From sequence record SRR20825006_1712: 52,122 bases of DNA, one strand, 5' to 3'. The translations under genes were made by a program, and so were the position numbers. This document shows, piece after piece, positions 2,415 to 31,541 of this stretch; the stretch's first letter is position 1; the number at the start of each line of letters is the position of its first letter. The notes beneath the pieces were generated by a model. It worked only from the letters and a program-made list of their open reading frames with translations, had not been told where the DNA came from and did no database searches.

Positions 2415-3827
2415 ATGAACAGAAGACACTTTTTTAGAAATACGACTTTAGGAGCGCTAGGTACATCGTTACTTACCCCTTTTGACTCGCTACAAGCTGC
2501 GGAGCACGCCCTGAGTTTCAAGAACAAAAAGGCTAAAAACATCATTATGCTAGTGAGTGACGGGATGAGCACCGGAACGCTAAATATGGCCGATTTACAC
2601 CTGCGTAGACACACCGGAAAAAGCAGTAACTGGATGCAATTGTACAGCGACAATAAAGTGACCCGCGCATTGATGGATACCGCTTCGGCGAGTTCAATAG
2701 TGACTGATTCGGCGGCGGCGGCTTCTTCCTGGGGTGGCGGTGTGCGCGTGCCCAATGGCGCACTCAACGTGAGCCAAAACGGGGAACAGCATTTACCCTT
2801 GTGGCAAAAGTTTAAAAAAGCAGGAAAAAAAGCGGGAACGGTAACCACCGTTCCGGCGACACACGCTACACCAGCTGGTTTTTGTGTGAATTCTAAATCG
2901 CGAAATGCGATGGAAGATATTGCCGAAATGTATCTGGAACATCGATTTGATGTCGTGATGGGCGGTGCTCAAAAGTATTTTTCCGCGGAAGCGAGAAAAG
3001 ATAAAAAAGATGTATTCGCTGCTTTTGAAAATGCCGGCTATCAAGTTTTTAAAAACCGTAAGGAAATGCTCAATGCTAAACGCAAAAAACCAATTCTTGG
3101 TGTTTTTGGCAATGATGCCCTGCCCTACGCCATTGACCGTGAAAATGAGGAAACGCTAAAAAAGGAAACTCCATCTCTCGCAGAAATGACCCAAACAGCA
3201 ATCGATGCGATGAAAGACCACAAACAAGGATTTACCTTACTCGTAGAAGGTGGAAAAGTGGACTGGGCCGCACACGCCAACGACATTGCCGGTCTTATTT
3301 TTGACCAGATCGCTTTTGACGAAGCCATTAAGACAGCGATTGATTTTGCCGAAAAGGAAAAAGAAACCCTCGTGATCATCACTACAGACCACGGAAATGC
3401 CAATCCCGGTGTGATTTATGGCGGGGATGCCAATGACCATTTTGATTCTATACAGCACTACAAACATTCCAACGAATGGATTTTAAATGGTTTTAATCCG
3501 GATACGACTTTAAGTCAAATCAAAGAACGTATCAACTATGCTAATGGAATAGGTATCACCGATGAAGAAGCGCAGACTATTGTGCGGTATTATGATGATT
3601 TGGTTGCTGAAGATGGTTTGTACAACCCGCGGCATTTACCTTTTGGCGTGCTTGCAGATATTCAAAAACGCTACAACTCCGTAGGATGGATCAGTATGCA
3701 GCACTCAGCAGATTATGTTGAACTCGCGATGTATGGCCCGGGTAGCGAACTTTTGCAACCTTTTGTAAAAAATACAGATCTACACTATTTAATGCTCAAA
3801 GCCGCAGAGGTTGAAAATGTGTTTTAG
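2415..3827 (+). CDS. Alkaline phosphatase (PhoA family) with twin-arginine signal
   Basis: NRRHFF Tat motif; SDGM, VTDSAAAAS (catalytic Ser), HATPA, VEGGKVDWAAHAND and TTDHGN metal-ligand motifs. Confidence 0.92.
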   Translation: MNRRHFFRNTTLGALGTSLLTPFDSLQAAEHALSFKNKKAKNIIMLVSDGMSTGTLNMADLHLRRHTGKSSNWMQLYSDNKVTRALMDTASASSIVTDSAAAASSWGGGVRVPNGALNVSQNGEQHLPLWQKFKKAGKKAGTVTTVPATHATPAGFCVNSKSRNAMEDIAEMYLEHRFDVVMGGAQKYFSAEARKDKKDVFAAFENAGYQVFKNRKEMLNAKRKKPILGVFGNDALPYAIDRENEETLKKETPSLAEMTQTAIDAMKDHKQGFTLLVEGGKVDWAAHANDIAGLIFDQIAFDEAIKTAIDFAEKEKETLVIITTDHGNANPGVIYGGDANDHFDSIQHYKHSNEWILNGFNPDTTLSQIKERINYANGIGITDEEAQTIVRYYDDLVAEDGLYNPRHLPFGVLADIQKRYNSVGWISMQHSADYVELAMYGPGSELLQPFVKNTDLHYLMLKAAEVENVF

Positions 3828-3866
3828 ATATTCATTGAACTAATGATGAAGTGGCGCAAAAAGTTT

Positions 3867-3874
3867 TACTTTTG
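3867..3874 (+). promoter_or_regulatory. Bacteroidota -7 promoter element (TACTTTTG), implying a nearly leaderless mRNA for the Cys-rich ORF
   Basis: Matches TAnnTTTG and ends 5 nt before ATG 3880. Confidence 0.5.
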
Positions 3875-3879
3875 AAGTG

Positions 3880-4182
3880 ATGAAAATCCTAGTGATACTT
3901 TTTGCGCTACTTACTTTTTCCCTTTCGACGGTTACCTGCTGCGTGGGGAATATTACGGGCGTTGAGTATCATCAAGACGATGAGGATGATTGTGAAGATG
4001 GTCCGTGTGATGAGCCTTGCTCTCCCTTTTTCAACTGCGGTACTTGTACAGGGTTTTCAGTGCAAGAATTTGAAAATCTTGACTTTCAGCAAGAACAAAT
4101 CCCTACTCAAAAAATCGTTTCCATCAGTTATTTAAGAGCTGGAGAATTTCACGATTCTTCCTTTCGGCCTCCCCGGGCGTGA
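3880..4182 (+). CDS. Small Cys-rich exported protein (DUF6660-like), candidate regulatory leader ORF
   Basis: Signal-like N-terminus, acidic/Cys segment, CSPFFNCGTCTGF, C-terminal FRPPRA. Lies directly upstream of the TonB receptor. Start is GTG 3877 or ATG 3880. Confidence 0.7.
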   Translation: MKILVILFALLTFSLSTVTCCVGNITGVEYHQDDEDDCEDGPCDEPCSPFFNCGTCTGFSVQEFENLDFQQEQIPTQKIVSISYLRAGEFHDSSFRPPRA

Positions 4183-4235
4183 TTAAAATTGACTTTGTTT
4201 TTTCGCTTTAAGCGAAATGAAATCTCATTTTAATC
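4181..4235 (+). promoter_or_regulatory. Nested RNA hairpin between the leader ORF and the TonB receptor
   Basis: GATTAAAAT (4181-4189) is complementary to ATTTTAATC (4227-4235), enclosing TTTCGC-ttaa-like loop-GCGAAA (4201-4217). Confidence 0.55.
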
Positions 4236-4251
4236 CTCTTAAATTCTTTAA

Positions 4252-6420
4252 ATGAAACATCTTCATTTATGGCTGTTGCTGCTGTGTTGCAGTGCGGCTT
4301 TTGCCCAAAATACCTTTGTGGCAACCCTTAAAAATGCTGAAACGCAAGAACCGCTTTATGGCGTTTCGGTAAGTATTATAACATTAAATAAAGGCGCAAT
4401 TTCTAATGCTGAAGGACTCGTACGCATCGAGAATATCCCTAACGGAACCTATGCGCTCGAGCTGCGCTATGTAGGTTTTAAAACCCAAAATATCACCAGA
4501 ACTTTTCCGTTGAGCGCAGAAGAAAACAATCAGACCTTTTACCTGCATCACGCAGAAGAAGAAATGGACGAAGTCGTTATCCAGTCGACCCGTAGTTCGC
4601 GTACCTTTCAAGATATTCCCACACGTCTGGAATTTATTGCTGGCGAAGAACTTGCCGAAAAAGGCAATATGAAACCGGGCGATATCAGGATGTTGCTCAA
4701 TGAAAGTACGGGTATTCAAACGCAGCAAACCTCTGCAACGAGTTACAATTCTAGCATTCGTATCCAGGGGTTAGACGGGAAATACACGCAATTGCTGCGG
4801 GATGGACTCCCACTCTATTCGGGATATTCCGGCGGATTGAGTTTAATGCAGATCGCTCCGCTTGACCTCAAGCAAGTGGAAGTGATAAAAGGAGCTTCGT
4901 CTACACTTTACGGTGGCGGTGCAATTGCCGGACTCGTCAATCTGATCTCGAAGACCCCGGAAGACGAACCCGAATTGAGTTTTATGGCGAACGGAACTTC
5001 TGCACTAGGACTGGACCTTAGTGGGTTTTACTCCCAAAAATACGGCAAGACCGGAGCAACGGTTTTTGCTTCCTATAATCTGGGAACACCTTACGACCCC
5101 GCAGACAACGGACTGACGGCTATTCCAAAATTTGAGCGCTTTACGTTGAATCCTAAGTTCTATCTGTATCTCAATGAGAAAACCAATTTGAATGTAGGTT
5201 TTAACTATGTAAACGAGGATCGCTTGGGTGGCGCGATGGATTATGTAAAAGGAGATAGCGAAACCGGTTATTTTGAGCGGAATAAAACAGACCGACTTTC
5301 AACACAAGTATTGGGCAGTCATCAGTTAAGCGATAACACGGCACTGACGGTAAAAAACAGTATCAGCTTTTTTGAACGCGAAATTGATATTCCCAGTTAT
5401 ACTTTCGCCGGAAGGCAAACCTCATCATTTTCTGAAGTCAATATTGCAACAAGCCTTGCAAAAACTGAATGGGTTGTCGGTGCTAACTTATGGACCGAAA
5501 ATTTTAAACAACAGCAAGGTGATCCTGCTCAGGACTTAAGTTTTACCAATTATACTGCTGGAGTTTTTGCACAAAATATTTGGGATATTCAAGAACAATG
5601 GACGCTGGAAACCGGCTTGCGTACCGATTATCAGAGCGATTATGGTGTGTTTGTTTTGCCGCGTTTATCGCTAATGTTTGAGCCTACTAACTTGCTCACC
5701 TTTAGAATAGGCGGTGGTATGGGCTATAAAACGCCCACGGTTTTTACTGAAGATGTGGAGCGCTTGCAGTTTAGAAGTGTGCAACCCATCAATATCGATG
5801 AGACTGACGCTGAACGTTCGATTGGCTTCAACCTGGACGGAAATTACAAATGGTCTATCACTAATGACCTGAATTTGTCAACTAACGTGCTTCTGTTTTA
5901 CACACGTATTGACGATCCTATAGTACTTAACCGCACCTCTGGAGCAATGTATGAGTTCATTCAACCGGGTGGTCATATTGAAAGTAGTGGTATTGAAGCA
6001 AATATGCGCTGGAAGTACAAAGATTTTAAACTGTTTGTAGGTTATACTCTGGCCGATGTCAATCAGCATTACAATGGGGCAAGCGAGCAATACCCTTTGG
6101 TGTCTCAGCATCGTCTTAATAATGTGTTGATGTATGAAAAACACGACAACTTCTGGATAGGTTTAGAAGGGTATTATTACAGTCCGCAGAAGTTGAATGA
6201 CGGCACCACCGGTCAATCCTATTGGATTTTAGGCGTGATGACCGAAAAGAAACTGGGTGAGAAATTTTCAGTATTTCTCAATTTTGAGAACTTTTTAGAT
6301 ACGCGTCAATCCCGTTTTGACACGATTTATACCGGTACGCTGAATGACCCAAATTTCAGGGATATTTACGCTCCAGTTGATGGCTTTGTGATCAACGGCG
6401 GTTTTAAATTAAAGTTATAG
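4252..6420 (+). CDS. TonB-dependent outer membrane receptor with N-terminal carboxypeptidase-regulatory-like domain
   Basis: Signal peptide; N-terminal extension (YALELRYVGF); 'MDEVVIQSTR'; plug motifs IRIQGL and VEVIKGASSTLYGGGAIAGLVNLISK; C-terminal beta strand GGFKLKL. Confidence 0.93.
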   Translation: MKHLHLWLLLLCCSAAFAQNTFVATLKNAETQEPLYGVSVSIITLNKGAISNAEGLVRIENIPNGTYALELRYVGFKTQNITRTFPLSAEENNQTFYLHHAEEEMDEVVIQSTRSSRTFQDIPTRLEFIAGEELAEKGNMKPGDIRMLLNESTGIQTQQTSATSYNSSIRIQGLDGKYTQLLRDGLPLYSGYSGGLSLMQIAPLDLKQVEVIKGASSTLYGGGAIAGLVNLISKTPEDEPELSFMANGTSALGLDLSGFYSQKYGKTGATVFASYNLGTPYDPADNGLTAIPKFERFTLNPKFYLYLNEKTNLNVGFNYVNEDRLGGAMDYVKGDSETGYFERNKTDRLSTQVLGSHQLSDNTALTVKNSISFFEREIDIPSYTFAGRQTSSFSEVNIATSLAKTEWVVGANLWTENFKQQQGDPAQDLSFTNYTAGVFAQNIWDIQEQWTLETGLRTDYQSDYGVFVLPRLSLMFEPTNLLTFRIGGGMGYKTPTVFTEDVERLQFRSVQPINIDETDAERSIGFNLDGNYKWSITNDLNLSTNVLLFYTRIDDPIVLNRTSGAMYEFIQPGGHIESSGIEANMRWKYKDFKLFVGYTLADVNQHYNGASEQYPLVSQHRLNNVLMYEKHDNFWIGLEGYYYSPQKLNDGTTGQSYWILGVMTEKKLGEKFSVFLNFENFLDTRQSRFDTIYTGTLNDPNFRDIYAPVDGFVINGGFKLKL

Positions 6421-6483: not shown

Positions 6484-6990
6484 TTACATTTCTGCAGTTG
6501 TAGTGGTATCTACTTTAGCCATAATAGCCTGATGCTCATCCATCATCATGTTGTGTTCACTTTCCATTTCTTCGTGTTCACTCATAAGTTGCTGATGATT
6601 ATCCATCATTTCTTCAAGTTGTGCTTCCATTTCAGCTTCAGATTTTTCTTCAAAACCTGCCTTTAATTCTTCATGTGCTGCAATCATTGCATCGTGACCC
6701 TCAATAGTAGCCTCGTGTTTTTTCAAAATTGCCTCGTGTTTAGCAACATCTTCAAGAATGGTAGAATCTTGTAATTCCATCCCGTCTAGTGCAGTTGTGA
6801 ACTCTTCATGTTTCTGAGTCATTTCACTATGCACCGTTTTGAACTCGGCGTGCACCTGCTCAAGACTGTCGTGTTGCATTTCTAACTTGTCAAACTTTGC
6901 GGCAAGTTCTTTCTTTTGAGTATTCTCACAACCTACTAATACCAGTAGGAATGTAGAAAAGCTAAGTAATGTTCTAGATATAGTTTTCAT
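6484..6990 (-). CDS. His/Met/Glu-rich helical lipoprotein, probable metal-binding protein
   Basis: Lipobox LVG-C21; 12 His in three runs with exact 7-residue spacing. Confidence 0.75.
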   Translation of the reverse strand: MKTISRTLLSFSTFLLVLVGCENTQKKELAAKFDKLEMQHDSLEQVHAEFKTVHSEMTQKHEEFTTALDGMELQDSTILEDVAKHEAILKKHEATIEGHDAMIAAHEELKAGFEEKSEAEMEAQLEEMMDNHQQLMSEHEEMESEHNMMMDEHQAIMAKVDTTTTAEM

Positions 6991-27872: not shown

Positions 27873-28682
27873 TTATCTTAAATGTTCCCCGCCATCAACC
27901 GGAATCACCGCTCCGTTGATCCAGTTGGCTTCGGGTTTGGTCAACAAGTACACCACATTGGCAACATCCTCCGGAGTGGTCAATCGCTTTTGCGGGTTGC
28001 GTTCTAGTGCCTGAGCTATAAGCTGATCACTTCCCGGGATCAATTGTAAACTTTCGGTATTGGTTACACCGGCTTGAATACAATTGGCTGTAATTTTCAA
28101 TGGTGCCAACTCAAATGCTAAACTGCGAATTATGGCTTCTAAAGCTGCTTTTGCTGCGGAAACTGCCGCGTAATTGGGTAAAGGTTTTGTGCTTCCTTCG
28201 CTTGTAAAAGTTAGGATTTTCCCGTTTTCTTCAAATAAACCAGCGTTTGCAAATGCGCTCGCCCAGTCGTATAAACTCACCGCCATCGCTTCGGCAGTAA
28301 GTATAAAATCCTTCCCGGAAAGTTTAGCTACGGAAGCGTCCTCTGCATAAATAGGTTTGAGATTTCCTTTGGCAATACTGTGCAATAACACTTTTACTGA
28401 AGCATTGCGCTCTGTAAAGAAATCTTTTACCTTATCAATAGTTGCCGGGTTGAGCGCATCAATATTAAAGCTTTCGATCTGAATTCCTGTTTCGCGCAAA
28501 ACTTCAATCGTATGGTTAAATTCCTCGAGTTTGCTTCTGCGCGTGCGGTGCACGATGCAAAGATGTAAACCCTTAGCGGCGAGTTTTTTTGCCGAAGCAA
28601 AACCTAAACCGCTGCTTCCACCTAAGATCAGTGCCCAACTATTAGACGTGTCTTCGGTATTAAATTCAAAAGTATTTACCAT
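27873..28682 (-). CDS. SDR-family oxidoreductase (enoyl-ACP reductase FabL-like)
   Basis: GGSSGLG, Y(AAVSAA)K YX6K spacing typical of enoyl reductases, PEDVANVV, VDGG. Confidence 0.82.
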   Translation of the reverse strand: MVNTFEFNTEDTSNSWALILGGSSGLGFASAKKLAAKGLHLCIVHRTRRSKLEEFNHTIEVLRETGIQIESFNIDALNPATIDKVKDFFTERNASVKVLLHSIAKGNLKPIYAEDASVAKLSGKDFILTAEAMAVSLYDWASAFANAGLFEENGKILTFTSEGSTKPLPNYAAVSAAKAALEAIIRSLAFELAPLKITANCIQAGVTNTESLQLIPGSDQLIAQALERNPQKRLTTPEDVANVVYLLTKPEANWINGAVIPVDGGEHLR

Positions 28683-29743
28683 TGTAACAATATACGTTGT
28701 GCTGAAAAACCGGGACCAAAACTAAGCATCAATCCATAATCTTCGGCAGGAATTTTTCTATTTAAAAAACGTTCTAGAACATACAACACGGTTACACTGC
28801 TCATATTGCCATAAAGTCGAAGAACTTCTTTAGTATCGTCAATATTTTTTCCGGAAGCGCCAAACAAGCTTTCCACGGTCTGAACGATCTTCTTTCCGCC
28901 GGGATGAAATACCAAATTATTAACTTCTGAAATACTTATGTCATTCTTTGCGAGAAACGGATTGATAATCTGTGGAAAGTGCGCTGCTATAGTTTCTGGA
29001 ACCGATTTATCAAGAATCATTTTGAGTCCGTTGTTTGTCAGGTCAAATCCCATCATCTGTTCGGCATCGTAAAAATGATACATTTCGGTATCGATGATTT
29101 TTGGTCCTAACGCCTGTTCTTCTGAAGAAAGCAATACGCAGGCCGCGCCATCACCAAAAATCGCCGCGCTCACTATATTAGCCATCGAAAAATCATCTAG
29201 CTGAAAAGTCGCCGTTGGACTTTCTACCGCGATAACAGCAGCACGTTTACCGGGATTGGCTTTAAGAAAATCATTCGCATACAAGATCCCCGAAATTCCT
29301 GCGGCGCAACCCATTTCGGTGACCGGTAATCGGGTAATGTCTTGTTTCAGCTTTAAGCGGTTAATGAGATAGGCATCAAGCGACGGAATCATAATTCCCG
29401 TGCAACTCACGGTGATGATGTAATCTAGCGATTGCGCCTCCCAACCTGTTTTTTCAAGTGCTGAGCGCAAGGCATCTCCTCCAAGTTTGATTGCCTCACG
29501 TTTATAAATGTTGTTTTTATGCTCAAAGGAAGTCGCGGTAAACACCTCATCGGGAGCCATAATGCTATACCGCTTATCTACCCCGGCATTGCTGAAAATC
29601 TTTTTTACTTTACGCTGAAAACGCTCTTCATGCCCTGCCATCCATTGCGTGACCAACGGGAGAATCTCTTGGGTTTCGCGACTGTATTTTGGGACAGCTT
29701 TGGCTACACCTGCGATTGCTACTTTTGATTTTCTAATATCCAT
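28676..29743 (-). CDS. Type III polyketide synthase (chalcone-synthase-like)
   Basis: Catalytic triad EMGCAAG, HPGG, GNMSS; FGDGA; FGPGF. ATG 29743 preferred over 29767. Confidence 0.93.
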   Translation of the reverse strand: MDIRKSKVAIAGVAKAVPKYSRETQEILPLVTQWMAGHEERFQRKVKKIFSNAGVDKRYSIMAPDEVFTATSFEHKNNIYKREAIKLGGDALRSALEKTGWEAQSLDYIITVSCTGIMIPSLDAYLINRLKLKQDITRLPVTEMGCAAGISGILYANDFLKANPGKRAAVIAVESPTATFQLDDFSMANIVSAAIFGDGAACVLLSSEEQALGPKIIDTEMYHFYDAEQMMGFDLTNNGLKMILDKSVPETIAAHFPQIINPFLAKNDISISEVNNLVFHPGGKKIVQTVESLFGASGKNIDDTKEVLRLYGNMSSVTVLYVLERFLNRKIPAEDYGLMLSFGPGFSAQRILLQW

Positions 29744-30420
29744 AAATATCTGAACGCCCAGCGCCATTTTATACTAAACGACTGTACCCCGAGTTTTGAT
29801 GTAAAAGATAGCAATTCGTTTTTTGTAAAAGCGCGTTCTATAGAAATTAAACCATCGTGTCGTGCCATTTCGCTTCTCATAAATACACGACTATACGCCT
29901 GAAACAATCGATATGCAATCGTACTTCGCTGTAAATCATTGATCACTACTCCTAAGTTAGCCAACTTTAAAAACTGCGCTAGAAACTTTAAAATTTCAGC
30001 ATCATTAAAGTGGTGCATGGTTAAGGTTGAAGTGATTATGTCTATTTCCAGATGGGTTTCATTCAGCTTAAAAACATCTTGAACTTGAAACGACAGCTCC
30101 AGAAAATCTTGTGAGCGTTTTTGTGCTAAAGCAATACTTTTAGGATTGATATCAATCCCTATCAATGTTACAACAATAGAGCGTTGTCTGGCAAAGTTGG
30201 CGATGCTGCGCAGCATTGCTCCGTCGCCACATCCTACATCGAGAATGGTGTAACTTTTTTGTGGAAACCGATCAAAAAAATAGCGTAACCCTTCCAAAGT
30301 GACTTGCTGACCACCCAAGTATTTATTCACCCGAGTCACTTCTGCCAACGCGTCTTTTAAAGTAGCTTCATCCACGTTGGGGTCGTCCATCAATTCCGGG
30401 GTTAACTTACGAGACTTCAA
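29719..30420 (-). CDS. SAM-dependent methyltransferase
   Basis: ELMDDP, ILDVGCGDG, GIDIN, TMHHF, NDLQR, HDGLISI.RAF. Confidence 0.9.
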   Translation of the reverse strand: MKSRKLTPELMDDPNVDEATLKDALAEVTRVNKYLGGQQVTLEGLRYFFDRFPQKSYTILDVGCGDGAMLRSIANFARQRSIVVTLIGIDINPKSIALAQKRSQDFLELSFQVQDVFKLNETHLEIDIITSTLTMHHFNDAEILKFLAQFLKLANLGVVINDLQRSTIAYRLFQAYSRVFMRSEMARHDGLISIERAFTKNELLSFTSKLGVQSFSIKWRWAFRYLWILENQK

Positions 30421-31541
30421 ATTTTTAAAGGTTTTCCGTGGGTTGTTTGAATGAGTTTTTGTGTCACTTTTGGCAGGTGTTTTAGCACTTGTATTCCTGT
30501 GGATGTAAGCGCATCGTTTTGCAACGCATGCTGCAGCAGGTTTCCGGCAAGCAAGCGATTGGTAAACGTACGCTTCCAGAGCCGCTCATAATGTTGCTCT
30601 AGTTCGCCACGAGACCAATCTTGATTCGCGTACTCACAAATACATTCTGAAGCTAATTTAGCCGAAATAACCGCCATCGCCATTCCGTTTCCGCATAAGG
30701 GATGAATAAGTCTAGCGCTGTCGCCACACATCAACATATGATTTTCTACGCTCGGTTTTGATTGAAAAGCGATCTGACTGATACTTACCGGTTGATCAAA
30801 AAGAGATTCTGATTGGGAGAAAAACTTACTCAAATGCGGATTTTCACAAAGCACCTTCTGTTGAAAGTCTTCAATATTCTTACAAGGCTTGAATGCTTCG
30901 GTACGGGTTAGATAGCAGACATTTATTTTATGATCTTCCACCCTAGAAATTCCGCAGTAACCTCCTTTAAAATTATGCAGACTCACTTGATCTGAACGAA
31001 TTTCCCCAGCATAGTGGGCTTTAACCGCCAACCAATTATTCTTAGAATTTGTGAAATTTCGGTCCAGTTTAAAGTCTAAATTAGAACGCTTTCCAAAGGC
31101 GCCAATTACCAAATGAGCTTTAAACTCTTGCTGATGTTTAGTTGAAATAGAAAATGTATTTTCAGCAAAATGAACATTCTCAACAGTCTGAGCGATCAAG
31201 GTGCATCCTAAACTAAGGGCATATTCTAAAAGATGATGATCAAGTTTAAAACGACTGATCCCAAAACCTCCCAACGGCAGTTTAATGTTGAGCGATTTTC
31301 CGTTTACAGCAGATAGCGCTAAATGATCAATTGCGACCGCGCCCATCTGAAAAGGATCAAAACCCAAATAGTTCCAATACGGTAAAATTTCGTTAGAGAG
31401 GTATTCACCGCAAACTTTGTGTTTTGGGTAGTGCTCTTTCTCAAAAAGCAAGACATCAAATCCAGACTTGCGCAAATGAATTGCGGCAGTTAAACCGGCC
31501 AGTCCTGCACCAATAATTGCTATGTTAAACGACTTTTTCAA
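30417..31541 (-). CDS. FAD-dependent oxidoreductase/monooxygenase
   Basis: GAGLAG, KVCGEYLS, GD.A..IHPLCGNGMAMA. Confidence 0.88.
   Translation of the reverse strand: MKKSFNIAIIGAGLAGLTAAIHLRKSGFDVLLFEKEHYPKHKVCGEYLSNEILPYWNYLGFDPFQMGAVAIDHLALSAVNGKSLNIKLPLGGFGISRFKLDHHLLEYALSLGCTLIAQTVENVHFAENTFSISTKHQQEFKAHLVIGAFGKRSNLDFKLDRNFTNSKNNWLAVKAHYAGEIRSDQVSLHNFKGGYCGISRVEDHKINVCYLTRTEAFKPCKNIEDFQQKVLCENPHLSKFFSQSESLFDQPVSISQIAFQSKPSVENHMLMCGDSARLIHPLCGNGMAMAVISAKLASECICEYANQDWSRGELEQHYERLWKRTFTNRLLAGNLLQHALQNDALTSTGIQVLKHLPKVTQKLIQTTHGKPLKI

Follow-up and report, generated by a model that had tools for sequence, protein, structure and literature searches.

What does a small, cysteine-rich reading frame do when it stands just in front of a gene for a TonB-dependent receptor? 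The question is raised by a stretch of DNA of 52,122 nucleotides from sequence record SRR20825006_1712 (hereafter the window, meaning this whole stretch at its full length), in which an open reading frame (ORF) of 100 amino acids is followed, after an A/T-rich and C-poor intergenic region of 69 nt, by a receptor gene. An earlier note on this DNA had proposed that the ORF is a metal-sensing leader on which ribosomes stall, and thus a Bacteroidota analogue of CruR of Bordetella. Our comparative analysis suggests that the ORF is probably a cis-acting regulatory leader (upstream ORF, uORF) of the receptor gene, and the comparison of related sequences provides strong evidence for a leader that would act in cis and depend on its nascent chain. 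The features on which the first part of the argument turns are:

3867..3874, + strand: Bacteroidota sigma-A -7 promoter box TACTTTTG (TAnnTTTG), 5 nt before the ATG (motif match, conserved placement)
3880..4182, + strand: leader ORF, 100 amino acids plus TGA stop (sequence read; treated as a divergent DUF6660 member)
3880..3939, + strand: hydrophobic N-terminal segment (residues 1-20), an export signal or membrane anchor that closes with a conserved (P/T)CC (alignments A2 and A4; AlphaFold helix 2-17)
4018..4047, + strand: conserved Cys module CSPFFNCGTC, C47-C56 (conservation in 119 sequences)
4048..4167, + strand: spacer of 40 residues, last Cys to first Pro (length fixed, sequence variable among relatives)
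4168..4173, + strand: Pro97-Pro98, candidate ribosome pause site (PP invariant in alignments A1, A2 and A4)
4252..6420, + strand: TonB-dependent receptor, 722 amino acids (Pfam CarbopepD_reg_2, Plug, TonB_dep_Rec_b-barrel)

The proposed leader and its family

The leader begins with the ATG at 3880 (an in-frame GTG lies at 3877) and ends with the TGA at 4180-4182. Its N-terminus reads MK followed by ~17 hydrophobic residues, where AlphaFold places a helix (residues 2-17, predicted local distance difference test (pLDDT) 93), the CGTC motif is C53-C56 (4036-4047), and the chain closes with F-R-P-P-R-A, of which R96 is encoded at 4165-4167, P97 at 4168-4170 and P98 at 4171-4173. The earlier description of a ~100-residue ORF with a signal peptide, a CGTC and an FRPPRA end therefore stands, as does the remark that the motif is RPP and not RAPP, but the eight cysteines counted at that time are in fact seven (positions 20, 21, 38, 43, 47, 53 and 56). 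Both histidines of the leader lie outside the Cys module.

Against the Pfam family PF20365 (DUF6660) the ORF scores E 0.021 and 15.7 bits, below the 27-bit gathering threshold, with an alignment that spans its full length (residues 1-100 against model positions 1-102), and the NCBIfam search of the leader gave no match. A word-index homologue search returned four relatives, and the profile built from them retrieved 539 proteins at E ≤ 1e-3, 45 of them at E ≤ 1e-10, from 1.84 billion representatives; given this conservation, the idea of a spurious ORF was rejected. Nearly all of the close relatives in alignment A2 (39 of 40) match PF20365 at E ≤ 10, the best at 6e-11, and two relatives, P0003 and the leader of a Leeuwenhoekiella metagenome-assembled genome (locus L035), carry PF20365. 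The ORF also has the architecture of DUF6660, with a signal, PC(C/x)D, an acidic linker, the CSPF Cys module, the 40-residue spacer, Pro-Pro and a short tail. On this likeness of sequence we treat it as a divergent branch of the DUF6660 superfamily, despite the sub-threshold score. Pfam describes DUF6660 as a Bacteroidota family of unknown function, and a full-text literature search for 'DUF6660' returned no paper. The two branches differ in their modules and in what they precede, as the Pfam core branch has CSPFCxCHCCH and stands mostly before CzcA-type pumps, whereas the window's branch has PCC...CSPFxxCGxCxGF and stands before one receptor. The nearest named record is Leeuwenhoekiella palythoae DSM 19859 (L031), whose leader protein is identical and whose receptor is 97% identical.

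The most constant parts of the family are its end and the distance to that end. Among 152 of the best 153 representatives (one protein of 4702 residues was dropped), Pro-Pro stands near the C-terminus in 148, and the remaining four look truncated. The tail after it has two residues in 15 representatives, three in 89, four in 9, five in 15 and 6-23 in 20, which places Pro-Pro 2-5 residues before the stop in 128 of the 152. The residues favoured around it are, in order, I (51%), W (66%), Q (64%; K in 26%), the two prolines, and K (49%; R in 25%), and the window's R at -1 and F at -2 are rare variants (5% and 11%, respectively). As the pair is written with 13 different codon pairs among the 43 receptor-linked loci described below, selection appears to act on the peptide. 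The last Cys of CSPFxxCxxC and the first Pro are 39-44 residues apart in all 169 sequences bearing both motifs (40 in 102 and 41 in 45; 14 further sequences, unmatched by the search pattern, fall outside this count). The standard deviation of this spacer is 0.8, versus ~20 for the N-terminal spacer, and its sequence is barely conserved although its length is constant. Thus both conservation checks that the earlier note had suggested, on the xPP terminus and on the CxxC spacing, came out in favour of its proposal. In and next to the Cys module (119 sequences) C47, F50 and C53 never vary, and S48, P49, C56 and G58 reach 90% conservation or more. AlphaFold2, given 119 sequences, predicts no fold beyond the N-terminal helix (mean pLDDT 68, predicted template modelling score 0.31), with moderate pLDDT (73-85) at residues 61-90. 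By its sequence and its model, the peptide looks like a nascent-chain device and unlike a folded protein.

Which genes follow the leader? Leader-only patterns, taken from a five-sequence leader alignment and searched with one genome per species, gave 43 loci in Flavobacteriales, Cytophagales and Chitinophagales (receptor-type loci). In all 43 the next gene is an orthologue of the window receptor (51-97% identity; two copies are broken), and the neighbours other than the receptor vary. Metal genes occur among these neighbours (MerT-HMA in three loci; a cation diffusion facilitator (CDF) transporter, a Fur-family, an ArsR-family and a PepSY_TM gene in one each), and the neighbourhoods of the loci are too variable to name the metal. 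No modifying enzymes are conserved near the leader, for which reason a reading as the precursor of a ribosomally synthesized and post-translationally modified peptide was rejected. The PF20365 model in turn matched in 32 of 61 related genomes. Of the 30 PF20365 loci fetched, 28 end in Pro-Pro plus 2-11 residues, and the 29 with a downstream ORF comprise 22 with a CzcA/AcrB-type resistance-nodulation-division (RND) pump (pump-type loci), five with a TonB-receptor-like protein and two with an unrecognisable one. One leader family therefore heads importers and exporters. Its members stand at the head of operons before transport genes of metal type; that the cargo is metal we infer.

One PF20365 locus, L005, departs from the pattern, as its leader lacks the Pro-Pro ending, continues to …LLPTVIIQFPRRGFFDF and looks frameshifted; it is followed by a second palindrome (of the kind described below), a promoter and a 131-residue ORF where the pump is expected.

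Promoter placement and the RNA helix

The earlier note had seen a -7 motif 5 nt from the leader ATG, and TACTTTTG is indeed present at 3867-3874. A single TAnnTTTG is common (50 in the window, versus 60 expected by chance), and so the weight of the box lies in its conserved placement: an exact TAnnTTTG ends 3-6 nt before the leader start in 29 of the 43 receptor-type loci and in 23 of the 30 PF20365 loci, where the start is often GTG. In Flavobacterium johnsoniae the box spans -12 to -5, leaving 4-5 nt before the start site (PMC6847099; here and below, statements from PMC6847099, PMC9426467, PMC12992588 and 10.1101/2025.02.05.636593 draw on parts of those papers), from which a start site at 3879 or 3880 is predicted for the window. 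This spacing implies a leaderless mRNA, with a transcript start at the ATG or 1 nt before it. Leaderless mRNAs make up 5.5% in F. psychrophilum (PMC9723704), and 87% of leaders in F. johnsoniae exceed 10 nt (PMC6847099). As leaderless mRNAs are thus a minority in flavobacteria, the conserved box placement is a feature of the family. A separate promoter inside 4183-4251, which the earlier note had named as speaking against its own proposal, did not emerge, as no exact TAnnTTTG lies in this interval and the one-mismatch candidate TGACTTTG at 4191-4198 was rejected because it is not conserved in alignment A5. In public RNA runs, metatranscriptome contigs of relatives cover only pieces of 3759-4800; none bridges leader, intergenic region and receptor in one piece, and contigs cannot show starts.

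The PF20365 loci L001-L019 carry a further element upstream of the leader, a 15-nt palindrome TGCA-N7-TGCA (e.g. TGCAACACAGTTGCA or TGCACACCCTGTGCA) ~24-38 nt before the leader start. The gap between its end and the start codon is exactly 24 nt in 16 of the 30 PF20365 loci and 30 nt in one more, and it overlaps the -33 region; the window's leader has no such palindrome. A dimeric transcription factor probably uses it as an operator, and pump-type leaders may therefore be under two levels of control.

Downstream of the pause site, the predicted RNA elements of the window are:

4181..4189, + strand: 5' arm of the long-range helix, GATTAAAAT (overlaps the stop codon; starts 10 nt after the first base of the Pro98 codon)
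4227..4235, + strand: 3' arm of the long-range helix, ATTTTAATC (16 nt before the receptor ATG at 4252)
4201..4217, + strand: inner hairpin, TTTCGCTT/AAGCGAAA (alignment A5 rows read by eye)
4130..4138, + strand: 5' arm of a second perfect 9-bp helix, ATTTAAGAG (pairs with 4236-4244; predicted in the window)
4236..4244, + strand: 3' arm of the second helix, CTCTTAAAT (7 nt before the receptor ATG)
4249..4269, + strand: local 8-bp hairpin holding the receptor start codon, TAAATGAA/TTCATTTA (arms 4249-4256 and 4262-4269; predicted fold)

The arms GATTAAAAT and ATTTTAATC pair perfectly (9/9), and the hairpin described earlier, with its overlap of the stop and its distance to the receptor ATG, was recovered at the same place. 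The fold of 4150-4270 has a predicted energy of -25 kcal/mol (z = -3.45; equalled by one of 200 shuffles), and in the free RNA the second helix stacks on the first. The inner hairpin is kept in relatives with altered stems (TTCAC/GTGAA and TTCCG/CGGAA, read in A5 by eye). A search of Rfam with 3700-4400 gave nothing relevant, the sole match being RT-9 at E 0.47 on the opposite strand. The T-run that precedes the inner hairpin is longer by one T (at 4197) in L. palythoae L031 and in a single metatranscriptome contig (run X2), a length polymorphism in the loop region of the helix.

We scanned each receptor-type locus for the best contiguous helix between the segment from the codon after the second Pro to 15 nt past the stop and the last 35 nt before the receptor start, with cross-locus pairings as the control; RNA.duplexfold was unsuitable for locating the arms, as it absorbs inner hairpins. 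The helix of the own locus reaches at least the 95th percentile of cross-locus pairings in 18 of 41 receptor-type loci, and at least the 99th in nine. In those 18, counting from the second Pro codon's first base, the 5' arm begins at +5 to +13 nt and the stop lies at +9 to +24, and the arm sequences vary between lineages (GATTAAAAT, ATAATTAAAA, TTTGAAGTAT, TTTTGAAATAT, GGATTTAGAA, TAAGCTGA and others). In L035 the leader extends seven residues past Pro-Pro and the arm GATTAAAAA lies inside the coding sequence at +10, the same position as the stop-overlapping GATTAAAAT of the window. Widening the 5' search window to -45 left 16 of the 21 loci scoring at least 8 at +5 to +13; when this widened scan pools both branches, the cross-locus control is inflated, since pump-type loci have common arm sequences. 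Judged by these comparisons of predicted helices, the RNA helix takes its position from the Pro-Pro codons, not from the stop.

The covariation check called for by the earlier note gave a positive answer. In alignment A5 (MAFFT, nine Flavobacteriaceae loci) the helix pairs in 67% of cells versus 56% after shuffling, a value reached by 2 of 500 shuffles; seven of its 11 pairs have changed on both sides, and every slid register scores lower. The pump-type loci have the same design in a stronger form, with a helix of 10-19 bp that takes in the stop codon (TAATTCAGTT.../...AACTGAATTA; TGATTCAACAC/GTGTTGAATCA in L021), starts +3 to +12 from the second Pro and ends 7-13 nt before the pump ATG.

The leading edge of a ribosome, together with its helicase, lies ~11-13 nt beyond the first base of the P site, and so a ribosome stopped on Pro-Pro would be placed right at the base of the helix. 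We forced the Pro-Pro footprint to be unpaired and read the predicted unpaired fraction of -18 to +6 around the downstream start. Accessibility rises in 20 of 40 receptor-type loci and falls in five, and it rises in 19 of 23 pump-type loci and falls in one; a footprint placed 30 nt upstream has no net effect across loci. For the family, then, one arm lies within reach of the leader ribosome, the other lies in the initiation region and the pairs covary, while the predicted effect in the window is modest.

Two variants of the RNA were seen beside this design. In L001-L019 a terminator-like hairpin, AGGATAnnnTATCC plus a T-run, lies ~12 nt after the leader stop, inside the pump-type long-range helix, which hints at an attenuation layer on top of the masking of the initiation region. 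In Algoriphagus (L038, L043, L045, L048 and L051), which are receptor-type loci without the long-range helix, the leader runs eight residues beyond Pro-Pro and its TAG stop falls in a short hairpin (AGCTC...GAGCT, 5-6 bp) with a T-rich tract behind it; these loci are possibly a transcription-termination variant of the same switch.

Proposed mechanism, known leaders and competing readings

In the mechanism that we propose, leader and receptor would be transcribed together, with the promoter setting the 5' end at the leader ATG, and the nascent leader would go to export via its N-terminal hydrophobic segment. The ribosome would pause at Pro97-Pro98, with CSPFxxCxxC then 40 residues back; as 40 residues is about the length of the exit tunnel, the Cys module would be at or near the tunnel exit during the pause, and its state (thiophilic metal bound, or disulfide formed) would set how long the pause lasts. 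A ribosome on Pro-Pro, or crossing the last ~20 codons, would block the pairing of 4181-4189 with 4227-4244, and a ribosome further upstream would likewise keep 4130-4138 unpaired. With these arms blocked the A/U-rich initiation region of the receptor would be exposed, and upon departure of the ribosome the helices would re-form and receptor translation would drop. If CruR, likewise a regulator of an importer, is taken as the guide, a sufficient supply of metal would cut the pause short and turn the receptor off; polarity and metal identity are guesses. The broader proposal is that DUF6660 and the receptor-linked branch are Bacteroidota-wide, leaderless, co-translational metal sensors with no detectable relationship to DUF2946, in which a new arrest motif (I/L, W/F, Q/K, P, P, K/R) exactly 40 residues behind a Cys or Cys/His module would switch importers (one TonB receptor) and exporters (CzcA-type pumps), by means of a ribosome held at the foot of a helix that masks an initiation region free of a Shine-Dalgarno sequence. 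In our judgement this broader proposal stands evenly balanced between right and wrong.

Several observations weigh against a switch of this kind. A significant long-range helix is missing from 23 of the 41 receptor-type loci, including Algoriphagus, Cyclobacterium and most Chitinophaga, and as the loci are related to one another, the statistics and p-values across them are overstated. The motif (W/F/L)(Q/K/R)PP is not among the RxPP sequences given as arrest-prone in the part of PMC12992588 used here. In the window, a ribosome on Pro-Pro covers just the first 3-4 nt of the 9-nt 5' arm, and its footprint raises the predicted unpaired fraction of the initiation region only from 0.26 to 0.35, less than a footprint 30 nt upstream (0.51); the second helix and the hairpin at the receptor ATG persist with the ribosome in this position. 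The earlier claim that a paused ribosome covers the 5' arm and opens the hairpin is thus narrowed from full to partial cover, with a modest predicted opening. In addition, the freed 3' arm could pair with the start region (4225-4233 with 4247-4255, 8/9) and so reverse the polarity, which means that the polarity is not readable from the sequence. Finally, one metatranscriptome contig spans 3759-3969, across the proposed start site, for which read-through, DNA or a relative are possible sources.

How close is this system to the leaders already described? CruR (Bp2923), a DUF2946 protein of Bordetella pertussis that carries CXXC and RAPP, is the leader of bfrG, a TonB-dependent transporter gene; once copper has relieved the arrest, Rho ends transcription ahead of bfrG (PMC9426467). 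Its arrest has been demonstrated in vitro (PMC12992588), and Roy et al. argued their case from a constant spacing of 45 residues between CXXC and the proline motif (PMC9426467). The present leader is likewise a uORF before a TonB-dependent transporter, with an export signal and a CxxC (C53-C56) at a conserved distance from a near-C-terminal diprolyl. However, it has FRPP (WQPP or KPP in the family) in place of RAPP and 40 residues from last Cys to first Pro in place of 45, and its 69-nt, A/T-rich intergenic region with a long-range helix contrasts with the G+C-rich intergenic region of 162 bp and the Rho-dependent termination of CruR.

CutF of Rhodobacter capsulatus, also a DUF2946 protein, is the leader of the multicopper oxidase gene cutO, where copper makes the ribosome stall at a C-terminal PPP, which opens a stem-loop that covers the cutO ribosome-binding site (10.1101/2025.02.05.636593). 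Like CutF, the present leader is small and exported and combines a Cys motif with a proline motif at its C-terminal end, and the geometry of its helix fits the logic of stem-loop melting. In contrast to CutF, with its PPP, CxxxC and shielded Shine-Dalgarno sequence, it has xPP, CSPFxxCxxC and a predicted leaderless mRNA, in a phylum reported to be without Shine-Dalgarno sites (PMC6847099), and it shows no sequence relationship. DUF2946, too, heads differing genes, with CruR before a receptor and CutF before a detoxifying oxidase. On paper the present system resembles both, and its RNA logic would be closest to that of CutF. It also shares the C-terminal diprolyl, the small size, the localisation signal and the position upstream of the proposed target with the RAPP/RGPP arrest peptides (ApdA, ApdP and SecM-like; PMC12992588), but not their R-(A/G)-P-P.

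None of the 40 subfamily members matches PF11162 (DUF2946), even at E ≤ 10, and hhalign of A2 against six RAPP/RGPP DUF2946-like proteins gave a probability of 24%, from the signal peptide only. RAPP, RGPP and PPP are absent from the window's C-terminus and from the family consensus. The earlier notion of a Bacteroidota analogue of CruR is partly supported, by the conserved family, export signal, CxxC, Pro-Pro spacing, receptor linkage and helix; homology to DUF2946 is not detectable, and the motif differs from RAPP. We conclude from the sequences that the leader is best taken as an analogue of CruR and CutF with its own family, motif and spacing, for which independent origin and divergence beyond recognition are both possible.

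PF11162 scored above cut-off in only two of 201 sampled Bacteroidota genomes, and the weak matches carry RAPP or RGPP tails. Such small ORFs were seen at L075-L081, in other Bacteroidota lineages; they end in SRAPP.., HRGPP.. or VRGPP.. and bear CxxC as well as His-rich motifs. A few Bacteroidota genomes therefore do have leaders of the RAPP/RGPP type.

Could the ORF instead encode an accessory protein, stable, exported and rich in Cys, that binds metal and serves the receptor or pump as chaperone or capture partner, with Pro-Pro as a protein contact and the helix as a matter of ordinary coupling or mRNA stability? Small periplasmic metal proteins are known beside czc and cus pumps, and the export signal, the conserved Cys module, the strict linkage with one receptor and the moderate pLDDT of residues 61-90 (73-85) would all suit such a protein. 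Against it stand the lack of a predicted fold or secondary structure past the signal helix, a 40-residue spacer conserved in length and not in sequence, an RNA arm that follows the Pro-Pro codons and not the stop, the heading of importers and exporters alike by one family, and the conserved leaderless promoter placement. This main rival we consider unlikely, although it fares best among the alternatives.

A leader of the arrest type might also sense something other than metal, such as export capacity or periplasmic thiol/disulfide status. SecM and other known arrest leaders monitor export (PMC12992588), the model for CutF invokes disulfide formation as a pulling force (10.1101/2025.02.05.636593), and the window's leader has seven Cys, with its two His outside the Cys module, all of which would fit such a signal. 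The regulated genes, however, are transporters of metal type (CzcA-like RND pumps in 22 of 29 loci, and TonB receptors), some of the neighbours are metal genes (MerT-HMA, CDF, Fur-family, ArsR-family and PepSY_TM), and the pump-type branch has a His and Asp-rich module, which makes a signal other than metal improbable.

Transcriptional control, exerted through termination (Rho-dependent or intrinsic) between the two genes instead of through a masked initiation region, appears least probable of all, as there is no terminator-like site in window 3750-4350, the A/T-rich, C-poor intergenic region would be a poor loading site for Rho and the 3' arm falls within the initiation region, even though pump-type loci have a terminator-like hairpin and T-run just after the stop and Algoriphagus has its 5-6 bp hairpin at the stop followed by a T-rich tract. 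CruR, for its part, acts through Rho (PMC9426467).

If the ORF is indeed a metal-sensing arrest leader, then leaders of this type would extend from Proteobacteria to Bacteroidota, a phylum that the survey of RAPP/RGPP uORFs names among the exceptions for Cu-related uORFs (PMC12992588). A function would be gained for an unknown family with at least 539 clusters at 50% identity, along with a new arrest sequence and a natural "40-residue ruler" for feedback from the tunnel exit or translocon on the peptidyl-transferase centre. The organisms in question are without Shine-Dalgarno initiation and the mRNAs are predicted to be leaderless. In addition, the conserved receptor (51-81% identical across three orders) would be a probable metal importer.

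The receptor and other genes of the window

A PDB sequence search of the receptor gave generic matches alone (Cir, BtuB and CntO, E 1e-13 to 1e-8). In an alignment of 41 receptor sequences (that of the window and 40 orthologues) Met140, Met147, Met627 and Met663 are invariant, His620 is 95% conserved and no Cys is conserved; the conserved Met and His residues are a weak hint of a soft-metal site.

On the minus strand, convergent with the receptor gene, 6484-6990 encodes a protein of 168 residues that belongs to no Pfam family. It begins like a lipoprotein (…LVGCENT), the rest of the chain is strongly enriched in His, Met and Glu (…HEEMESEHNMMMDEHQAIM…), and it may bind metal in the periplasm. 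Upstream of the leader, on the plus strand, the region 610-2392 holds an FtsX/MacB-type permease gene with a His-rich loop (HEHGEEHNEEAHAGTASHQEEEHHHDDKEHHHKE), after which come a 177-residue ORF with CFFCG and a weak match to DUF1980_C/TIGR03943, and an alkaline phosphatase gene (2415-3827). Together these could form a metal-related ATP-binding cassette system just upstream of the leader. At the place of the alkaline phosphatase, the Algoriphagus loci L038, L045, L048 and L051 have a phospholipase C (PLC)-type phosphoesterase gene. Further along the window, 27876-31541 on the minus strand holds a small biosynthetic cluster with a type III polyketide synthase (chalcone-synthase-like), a methyltransferase, an FAD oxidoreductase and a short-chain dehydrogenase.

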